Made by a program: the position numbers and the translations under genes
Notes under the pieces: model-generated
Seen by the model: only the letters and a program-made list of their open reading frames with translations
What the model was told of the DNA's origin: nothing
Database searches by the model: none
In this document: positions 1-18,991 of the stretch, piece by piece
Layout of the letters: every line of letters starts with the position of its first letter
Numbering within the stretch: position 1 is the first letter of the stretch
DNA from: an uncultured Clostridia bacterium
GTDB lineage: Bacteria > Bacillota > Clostridia > Oscillospirales > CAG-272
DNA: 34,374 nt
NCBI GenBank assembly: GCA_946618395.1
Contig: CAMOLD010000002.1
Coordinates: forward strand, 1 to 34,374
Direction of reading: 5' to 3'

Positions 1-93
1 TGGCGGAGAGGGCGAGATTCGAACTCGCGGTCGGTTATTAGCCGAACACACGATTTCCAGTCGTGCGCCTTAGACCAGCTCAGCCACCTCTCC
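1..93 (-). tRNA. tRNA-Ser (anticodon GGA), class II with long variable arm, CCA encoded
   Basis: Reverse complement of 1-93 reads GGAGAGG..CGA-CT-GGA-AA-TCG..long variable arm TGTTCGGCTAATAACCGACC..GCGAG-TTCGAAT-CTCGC-CCTCTCC-G-CCA. This gives a 7-bp acceptor stem, a canonical T-loop and anticodon loop CTGGAAA. The 3' end sits at the window edge. Confidence 0.93.
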
Positions 94-107
94 GTGCCGA
101 CTTGTAT

Positions 108-136
108 ATCATACCATATTCCGCGCGCGTTGTCAA
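108..136 (-). promoter_or_regulatory. sigma-A-type promoter for tRNA-Ser
   Basis: Minus strand reads TTGACA (136-131), 17-nt spacer, TGg-TATGAT (113-108), ending 14 nt upstream of the mature tRNA 5' end. T7/A7 tracts at 143-160 lie just upstream and are UP-element-like. Confidence 0.65.
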
Positions 137-172: not shown

Positions 173-385
173 GCCGCAATTTCCACAGGGAATTGCGGCA
201 ACTGAATCAATCCTTCGGATTGGTGATGTTCGGCTATCGCCGAGTGATGTTGCCTTGCGGCAGTGATGTTTGCCTTGCGGCAAGTGAAGGATTGATTCAA
301 CATCACTTGCAAACGTAGTTTGCAATCATCACGCAAGCGCCAGCTTGCTCATCACTTTCAGCCGCATGGCTGAAAACATCACCCT
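173..385. other. Multi-hairpin element with GTGATG/CATCAC hexamer array; function and strand unknown
   Basis: Hexamers: GTGATG at 223, 244 and 263, GTGAAG at 284, CATCAC at 301, 327, 350 and 377. Perfect hairpins: 173-199, 208-222, 230-243, 251-262, 270-283, 307-325, 333-348 and 356-375. Details are in the findings. Confidence 0.6.
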
Positions 386-3613: not shown

Positions 3614-7537
<3,924 letters not shown>

Positions 7538-15951: not shown

Positions 15952-15974
15952 AAAAAACAAAATAACAGTTCAAA

Positions 15975-16108
15975 AATTCTTTGGGGAATGGTGTAATTCC
16001 ATACCGGCAGTATAGTCTGCGAACGCAAATTCGGAAAATGCCGAATTGCGCCGATCGGGTGCAACTCCCGAACCGACGGTAACAGTCCGGATGAGAAAAG
16101 AAAGAACA
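15975..16108 (+). promoter_or_regulatory. FMN riboswitch (RFN element) aptamer
   Basis: Conserved RFN blocks are present: TTCTTTGGGG..GGTGTAATTCCATACCGGCAGTATAGTCTGCGA..GATCGGGTGCAACTCCCGAACCGACGGTAACAGTCCGGATGAGAAAAGAA. It lies directly upstream of a RibU-type transporter gene. Confidence 0.88.
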
Positions 16109-18902: not shown

Positions 18903-18991
18903 ATTCTTATCAAGAGTAACGGAGTGACCGGCACGATGATGTTACAGCAACCTGCCCGCGCGGTAAGGTGCTAAATCCGAGGAGATGAGAG
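18903..18991 (+). promoter_or_regulatory. SAM-I riboswitch (S-box) aptamer
   Basis: TTCTTATCAAGAG..GGAG.GAC.GGC.CGATGA..CAGCAACC..GGTGCTAAATCC..GATGAGAG matches the S-box consensus. The P1 helix is TTCTTATC/GATGAGAG. Confidence 0.9.

Follow-up and report, generated by a model that had tools for sequence, protein, structure and literature searches.

Weinberg et al. (2010; PMC2864571) listed the Gut-1 motif (Rfam RF01706), without further comment, among the RNAs that they considered certain, as not cis-regulatory and known from the human gut alone. Rfam gives it the type 'Gene; sRNA' (small RNA), and we found no paper on it later than 2010. It has stayed an orphan, represented by metagenome fragments only and by a three-hairpin model. 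Here, we analyse a 34,374-nt stretch of DNA from an uncultured Clostridia bacterium (Oscillospirales, CAG-272; GenBank assembly GCA_946618395.1, contig CAMOLD010000002.1, positions 1 to 34,374), hereafter the window, in which an element of alternating short linkers and hairpins (173-382, + strand) lies between a P-type ATPase gene and a tRNA-Ser gene. We conclude with high confidence that this element is one divergent, sub-threshold copy of the Gut-1 element family, and that it carries the variant linker GUGAUGU/ACAUCAC in place of GUGAUAU/AUAUCAC and a long-range helix (X:X') of wholly different sequence. What Rfam models as Gut-1 is only the left half of a larger module, which comprises a leading hairpin (P0), a left array with X:X' and an inverted right array.

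Gut-1 membership and anatomy of the element

At the level of Rfam's gathering thresholds, the window yielded tRNA, FMN and SAM matches only, and none to Gut-1. In a permissive scan, the sole meaningful match was Gut-1, at 199-274 (+) with 41.5 bits (E = 1.1e-6) and an alignment covering all 77 model positions. The cmscan check suggested in a preliminary description of this DNA therefore names a family, but does so under the Rfam cut-off of 50 bits. The left halves of related loci are bona fide Gut-1 matches (52-63 bits), and a profile hidden Markov model (HMM) and a covariance model (CM) built from such loci only, without the query, both recovered the element. The profile found it with nhmmer at 223-382 (+; E = 1.6e-14), and the CM, made from 45 A-type members, at 221-383 (+) with 63.2 bits (E ~1e-11) compared to 29 bits on the minus strand. 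The right array falls inside both spans. Gut-1 is recognized by at least three hairpins with GUGAAAU/GUGAUAU-type linkers, and positions 208-283 hold four hairpins and three GTGATGT linkers on the same strand. Across the family, 32 of 37 hairpin pairs change on both sides; the window's own stems are unlike the family consensus and still pair. The preliminary description, which had recognized no known RNA family, is thus superseded by the Rfam, HMM and CM results, while its exclusion of a tRNA or riboswitch stands.

The flanks of the published seed members point in the same direction. In the Weinberg Stockholm file, the sequences run on into a second array (AUAUCAC, four times), and a helix UAUAUUCGCC...GGCGAAUAUA closes the left half. 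The window copy and Gut-1 have in common tandem short hairpins with GUGA(A/U)(A/G)U linkers and gut Clostridia as hosts; both also have a terminator-like hairpin on the flank, an X:X' helix and, further downstream, an array in which the heptamers are complementary. They differ in that the window's GUGAUGU and ACAUCAC are entirely absent from the 2010 seed file, that its X:X' helix is of unrelated sequence, and that the Rfam model comprises the three left-hand hairpins, with the right array, P0 and X:X' outside the described family. A C/D-box or K-turn RNA (RUGAUGA) was also considered and rejected: such Rfam matches were at chance level (E = 0.56 and 8.5), GUGAUG has no CUGA D-box partner, and the heptamers face perfect Watson-Crick complements.

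The element is built of two inverted arrays whose unit is a 7-nt linker plus a variable hairpin, with P0 first on the + strand. P0 (173-199, +), the first and largest hairpin, reads GCCGCAATTTCC-ACA-GGGAATTGCGGC and has 12 pairs (11 Watson-Crick and one G·T) rather than the 9-bp stem first reported. A comparable long hairpin precedes the left array in every family member; in the window copy, the next letters are AACTGAATC, with no U tract. X (203-216, +; TGAATCAATCCTTC) is the 5' strand of the long-range helix and, as previously noted, a perfect 14-bp complement of 286-299. Its 3' part (208-213) doubles as the 5' arm of a local hairpin, hp0 (208-222, +; CAATCC-TTC-GGATTG), which is mutually exclusive with X:X'. 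X can pair either locally, in hp0, or with the central X', in which case it closes a three-hairpin domain. That domain is the left array (223-283, +), with linkers L1 (223-229), L2 (244-250) and L3 (263-269), all GTGATGT, and hairpins hp1 (230-243), hp2 (251-262) and hp3 (270-283). A GT junction and X' (GAAGGATTGATTCA, 286-299) occupy 284-299 (+). The right array (300-382, +) has three hairpins, hpA (307-325), hpB (333-348) and hpC (356-375), set between near-invariant heptamers complementary to the left linkers: R1 (300-306, ACATCAC), R2 (326-332, TCATCAC), R3 (349-355, TCATCAC) and R4 (376-382, ACATCAC). Hairpin stems of both arrays covary in the family.

These boundaries leave most of the initial inventory in place. 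GTGATG lies at 223, 244 and 263 (all GTGATGTT), GTGAAG at 284 and CATCAC at 301, 327, 350 and 377, and the six interleaved and two flanking hairpins can all be read from the sequence. GTGAAG at 284, listed as a fourth hexamer rung, is instead the GT junction plus the start of X'. Base composition would give 0.05 copies of a hexamer on each strand of a 213-nt segment; over its full 34 kb, the window has just 11 and 13. Constant linkers combined with variable stems agree with the earlier view of a non-random element selected for hairpin formation. They also agree with its rejection of a CRISPR array, in which direct repeats of 24-48 nt would alternate with unique spacers, usually near cas genes: here, the constant parts are 7 nt long with a period of 19-27 nt, the halves are inverted and the variable parts are self-complementary.

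Two observations concern the assembly and the right array. A second contig with an identical ATPase (locus L121, 3283-3405) ends inside the element and differs from the window at two bases (the hpA loop is GCA not GTA, and the first base of R2 is G not T), while the window contig begins exactly at the encoded CCA end of the tRNA-Ser (1-4), which suggests that assembly was disrupted by repeats or hairpins. On the minus strand, AAAGAGGAGGGTGATG, which includes AGGAGG, looks like a strong Shine-Dalgarno sequence and start codon opening a 16-codon open reading frame (ORF; 395-330, MFSAMRLKVMSKLALA) through the right array. We judged this ORF spurious, since relatives do not have such a flank; read on the plus strand, the same bases resemble the 3' tail of 16S rRNA.

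Alternative folds

Folds were compared in a 65-sequence alignment (A1), with observed values set against shuffled ones. Local hairpins were paired in 90.9% of cells compared to 68% after shuffling, with 32 of 37 pairs doubly changed and a covariation score of 0.506 versus 0.149. For X:X', 94.7% of cells were paired (83.8% shuffled), 6 of 11 pairs changed on both sides, and the score of 0.317 (0.118 shuffled) was reached in 0 of 500 shuffles; slid controls paired in only 36-49% of cells. One X:X' pair alone occurs as A-U in 36 sequences, U-A in 13 and C-G in 12, and four unrelated X/X' sequences are each still complementary. RNAalifold chose X:X' around hp1-hp3 and placed zero rungs between the arrays. 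Across the family, the hp0 helix covaries and is paired at 98.8%; in the window copy, its pair probability is 0.70. Covariation is three-way between X, X' and the 3' arm of hp0, which implies two mutually exclusive pairings. On this comparative evidence, 203-216:286-299, introduced in the preliminary description as a competing helix, is the best-supported of the predicted long-range pairings. MAFFT and the CM set the window one unit out of register at its 5' end, so its own X:X' was verified by eye and not through the pair counts.

The competing proposal is that the native fold is a nested ladder (L1:R4, L2:R3 and L3:R2, plus the rung at 284:306) of stacked four-way junctions, in which case X:X'/hp0 would be an intermediate in folding or one of the two states of a switch. 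This ladder is indeed the thermodynamic optimum for the window copy. Single-sequence folds of 160-400 gave it on both strands (z = -7.3 on + and -6.1 on -, with 0 of 200 shuffles as stable), its rungs have pair probabilities of 0.93-1.0, and it reaches -103.4 kcal/mol compared to -95.9 with X:X' enforced. Linkers of the two arrays also pair in the minimum free energy (MFE) structures of 56 of 64 relatives, and they are complementary in all three linker types found in the family. The commonest left variant, GTGGTAT, keeps its pair as G·U (17 G·U versus 7 unpaired cells at that position in L2/L3), and the three-way covariation itself implies two alternative states.

Rung by rung, however, the comparison does not show compensation specific to the ladder. 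The three rungs were paired in 94.7% of cells, but 91.7% was already reached by shuffles; 7 of 21 pairs changed on both sides (score 0.131 versus 0.077), and nearly all of these double changes are one family-level A-U to G-C switch common to G-type sequences. At two positions of L1:R4, 17 and 11 cells are left unpaired without compensation, and whole GTTATAT or GTGAAGT arrays stand opposite unchanged right linkers. The register is ambiguous, in that most relatives pair in another one (24 MFE structures with L1:R3 and only 6 with L1:R4), and left arrays exist without any right array. The innermost rung, 284-289:301-306, lies where it had been placed but contains an A·A mismatch at 288:302. Left-right complementarity is thus a real, conserved property and a ladder-like state is possible, but the specific four-rung ladder is not established, and we regard it as a rather improbable native fold.

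On the forward strand, G·U pairs outnumber A·C pairs by 51 to 25 (p = 0.004), and by 12 to 3 within X:X', which favours the Gut-1 (+) strand as the one that folds, an asymmetry that is modest (36 versus 21) once one ambiguous helix is left out.

A dispersed family and its genomic setting

When one genome per species was scanned for three GTGATRTT motifs at spacings of 8-26 nt, at least 120 family loci emerged. Among the matches listed, ~90% are from gut or rumen Clostridia (metagenome-assembled genomes), and hosts include Oscillospiraceae, Acutalibacteraceae, Ruminococcus, Christensenellaceae, Roseburia and Butyrivibrio, with Roseburia sp. AF12-17LB and Butyrivibrio crossotus as cultured carriers. 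At many loci, both strands are matched at a distance of 30-50 nt, and on several contigs there is more than one copy; the 34-kb window has one by profile HMM and CM. Read on the Gut-1 strand, the shared layout is P0–L0–hp0–L1–hp1–L2–hp2–L3–hp3–GT..–X'–R1–hpA–R2–hpB–R3–hpC–R4, with which the window element is collinear.

There are three linker types (AUAU, AUGU and AAAU), and for each of them the right array carries the complement that matches. When metagenomes were scanned for GTGATGTT..GTGATGTT..AACATCAC, 72 stretches were returned, of which ~17 are true elements. One G-type group has X = GATGTTTGCCC and X' = GGGCAAACATC, and another X = TAAGTTTGCC and X' = GGCAAACTTA, the latter in the window's own layout of AACT-X ... 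GTGAA-X'-ACATCAC. The third type comes from the 2010 seed file, which contains 54 copies of GUGAAAU and 33 of AUUUCAC; in its member BAAV01002358, GUGAAAU and AUUUCAC occur four times each, with X = UGAAAUUUGCCC and X' = GGGCAAAUUUCA. Linkers of one element switch type together. The right linkers are near-invariant, while the left ones drift (GTTATAT, GTTCTAT, GTGGTAT, GTGAAGT) without compensation.

At 16 loci (for example, L074 5155-5188 and L154 ~801-835), one widespread P0 hairpin is present, GCGTGATACTC-loop-GGAGTATCACGC, the stem of which is linker-like GTGATAC paired to GTATCAC; G-type elements, too, keep this hairpin without change. The P0 stem of A-type copies directly abuts UUAUAUU and is scored as an intrinsic terminator; G-type copies and the window have no U tract. 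Many A-type copies also contain, at their centre and on the reverse strand, TTGAAA-17-TG-TATTAT or TATTTT (L015 7541-7513 (-) and L003 6297-6269 (-)), a near-consensus promoter aimed into the left array. No such site was found in the window, in G-type copies or in L074.

Orthologous loci, reached through relatives of the window's ATPase, revealed presence and absence of the element. In the relatives with 87% and 80% ATPase identity, gene order is kept and the ATPase–tRNA-Ser spacer holds no element (one has a canonical terminator only), and a CM search of 22 kb around these orthologous loci gave no match. In the 90% relative, the same tRNA-Ser is inverted and 2.4 kb off, with an A-type element on its 3' side, directly past its terminator and thus close to the tRNA end at which the window contig begins. 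Among the 16 copies with near-identical P0, upstream flanks are homologous in 0 of 120 pairs. We therefore conclude with high confidence that the family is an intergenic repeat of modular build, dispersed in gut and rumen Clostridia, and that the window copy is a lineage-specific gain, not an element particular to the ATPase–tRNA-Ser locus.

The flanks of the window copy are as first described. The P-type (Ca-type) ATPase, an ORF of 898 aa, ends at 472, and the tRNA-Ser(gga) gene (93..1, -) is preceded by its promoter (94..136, -; TTGACA at 136-131 and TATGAT at 113-108, 17-nt spacing), which lies outside the element and is kept in the orthologous loci without it. A search of 137-471 for a canonical terminator, that is, a GC-rich hairpin with a direct U tract, returned none except a chance site inside the array, and the element occupies the place where a terminator after the ATPase gene would be expected. 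Elsewhere in the window, an FMN riboswitch (15973-16106, +; 101 bits) and a SAM-I riboswitch (18904-18991, +; 69.5 bits) exceed their Rfam gathering thresholds, which, taken with the names of homologues, fits a Firmicutes/Clostridia chromosome.

Across the family, copies tend to follow genes in the same orientation. Of 14 copies next to a tRNA gene, all 14 are found downstream of it and in its orientation, and one copy closes an rRNA operon. By raw ORF call, 37 of 52 copies have a co-oriented upstream gene; a hand recount gives ~42 of 52, because several 'opposite' copies have an intervening co-oriented tRNA; the upstream stop codon often lies 17-55 nt ahead of P0. Upstream genes are heterogeneous (GroEL, PPDK, phosphoglycerate mutase, glycosidases and membrane proteins), and therefore give no link between the element and one pathway or expression class.

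Several neighbouring features accompany individual copies. At L007, L008, L020 and L072, which are unrelated loci, an ORF of ~130 aa directly follows R4 in the same orientation; by eye, it has the look of a four-helix bundle of the 23S rRNA intervening-sequence type. At 0-200 nt past R4 in L014, L058, L062, L061, L111, L116, L182, L047, L100 and L038, there is another hairpin that resembles a terminator, AGAGAGAG..CTCTCTCT with a run of T, followed by a conserved module of ~120 nt ([GGGC-TWA-GCCC], [GCATTTGT-loop-ACAAATGC] ... ATTCTCCGMTAAGAACATCAC). Relative to the arrays, it can face either way, an arrangement suggestive of a mosaic built from repeat modules. In L054, single left-type arrays at 3734-3792 (+) and 7321-7379 (-) are true mirror copies (for example, TGCAAACGGTGGTTTGCA and TGCAAACCACCGTTTGCA) around a 3.4-kb block of ordinary metabolic genes, with two nucleoside-phosphorylase-like ORFs, an amidohydrolase and an RluA-like synthase, and no transposase. 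The 80% ATPase relative (L127, 15004-16601) has genes for a phage-type integrase and a REP_ORF2-G2P replication protein 2.3 kb past the tRNA-Ser, a small integrated element in the same tRNA neighbourhood.

Some of these properties would also be expected of a site that acts as DNA. The inverted heptamer arrays could be recognized by a recombinase or transposase, or serve as hairpin signals in single-stranded DNA, making the element a recombination module or one like a miniature inverted-repeat transposable element (MITE), with linker types that reflect co-evolution of protein and site. Ends of Tn7, Mu and Ac/Ds, and MITEs derived from such ends, likewise have two inverted sets of three to four copies of a short motif, and in them too a change of motif type affects the two sides coherently. 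In the Gut-1 family, a single motif forms inverted arrays in which all linkers change type jointly (AUAU, AUGU, AAAU), copies sit at non-homologous sites with P0 carried along, and close relatives are polymorphic for the insertion. The mirror-image arrays of L054 and the adjoining repeat modules in either orientation would fit as well. So would the loops: C-GNA-G and C-GNNA-G loops, including GCGAAGC, fall on the ATATCAC strand in both halves, so that their polarity is opposite between the arrays, and the window conforms. GCGAAGC is a hyper-stable DNA mini-hairpin.

Nevertheless, we consider a DNA-level site unlikely. Clustering of neighbouring genes for a transposase or partner protein gave nothing recurrent save the small four-helix-bundle ORF at 4 loci, neither a transposase nor a recombinase recurs nearby, and there is no transposase next to the arrays or between them. 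The alignment of the window with the empty orthologous spacers is too diverged for a target-site duplication to be defined. Linkers are spaced 16-27 bp apart and are not helically phased. The arrays lie only ~15-35 nt from each other with covarying hairpins in every gap, features that set the element apart from transposon ends. Stems that vary yet covary, with G·U above A·C, are what a folded RNA predicts, and the orientation bias toward upstream genes and tRNAs is unexpected of a symmetric DNA site. Finally, the element is rare in collections of viral and plasmid DNA: only 1 of 119 viral pattern matches was real, and the plasmids gave zero matches. One copy is in an unannotated 'Bacteriophage sp.' record from human faeces (GenBank MT835815.1, 5074-5174) and a full copy (CM, 166 bits) in a 4.2-kb IMG/VR contig (L221, 1375-1558); both may be mis-binned host DNA.

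A candidate role and its implications

The reading we favour, with moderate confidence, is that the window holds a Gut-1 copy acting as a structured intergenic repeat of the REP/BIME kind, as folded RNA. The element would work as a folded single-stranded nucleic acid, most likely RNA, reached by read-through from a neighbouring gene or across the P0 hairpin. A compact, stable stack of hairpins at a gene's 3' end could then stop exonucleases that enter from the 3' side and keep neighbouring transcription units apart. The constant heptamers may serve as a zipper for pairing between the arrays, giving a ladder as the alternative to X:X', or as repeated sites for a putative factor. On this reading, the element is a gene-specific regulator of neither the ATPase nor the tRNA-Ser.

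Enterobacterial REP/BIME, pneumococcal BOX and Bacillus cereus bcr1 repeats offer close parallels. They too are multi-copy and intergenic, mostly at gene 3' ends, are mosaics of palindromic units in alternating orientation with a patchy distribution among close relatives, and form stable hairpin stacks once transcribed. The Gut-1 family resembles them in its non-orthologous intergenic copies and in its presence or absence between relatives. It differs from REP in having variable stems and constant short linkers, the reverse of REP, so that there is no conserved palindrome unit. Likewise, neither a RAYT-type nor any other transposase is linked to the element, and no protein family recurs among its neighbours. 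We know of no counterpart to the long-range X:X' helix or to the way in which the three linker types switch together.

Several points weigh against this assignment of kind and role. The Rfam score of the window copy stays below the gathering threshold, and the excess of G·U over A·C is modest without the ambiguous helix. The opposite loop polarity of the two arrays would be better explained by a strand-symmetric function, at the DNA level or bidirectional, than by a single RNA strand. The near-invariance of the right heptamers is not accounted for by pairing, because the left linkers drift uncompensated. The window copy is in the minority orientation, its upstream neighbour being divergent and the ATPase convergent, and its P0 has no U tract and hence forms no canonical terminator. 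The role at the RNA level is itself one that we infer.

The same covariation on the + strand, together with strongly conserved heptamers between variable stems, could instead indicate a stand-alone, trans-acting sRNA whose heptamers sequester an oligomeric RNA-binding protein or act as its scaffold, in the manner of CsrB/RsmZ and CsrA. Terminator-like hairpins bracket many copies on both sides and could define a short transcription unit, and some A-type copies have the promoter-like TTGAAA-17-TG-TATTAT at their centre. CsrB/RsmZ sponges share the repeated display of a short motif on a hairpin scaffold, but the Gut-1 motifs are in linkers rather than loops, a second, complementary array is present that would be superfluous for a sponge, and the locus is not conserved. 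In addition, P0 is not preceded by a conserved promoter, the site at the centre faces the other way and is missing from the window and from G-type copies, and no associated protein gene was found near copies. Presence and absence among close relatives at non-homologous sites would also be atypical of a core regulatory sRNA, and we consider such a role doubtful.

A further reading, which we rate as quite improbable, would combine several of these properties: Gut-1 arrays as a bistable hairpin-array device of gut Clostridia, of a class not recognized before, that alternates between an X:X' 'clover' and a multi-rung ladder of stacked four-way junctions, is bound by a heptamer-specific factor and spreads as a mobile intergenic mosaic. 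As part of the same improbable reading, the specificity of the factor would have switched at least two times (AUAU, AUGU, AAAU), and every linker with it. Likenesses of the heptamer to parS or CRP half-sites, to the nick sites of phiX and pC194 and to the 16S 3' tail, which are not conserved across linker types, we take to be leads only.

For the ATPase–tRNA-Ser spacer itself, the message is modest, in that it holds no dedicated regulator of either gene. For the family, the Gut-1 motif becomes half of a bipartite module, which can now be placed in named, cultured gut Clostridia, and the Rfam model and its threshold overlook whole sub-families. At least three linker types with matched complements exist, the window's being missing from the original description. 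Experiments on what emerges as a dispersed, dispensable repeat rather than a fixed gene can now make use of carrier strains and of an element with defined boundaries, test the two competing folds against each other and use the heptamer as a bait.

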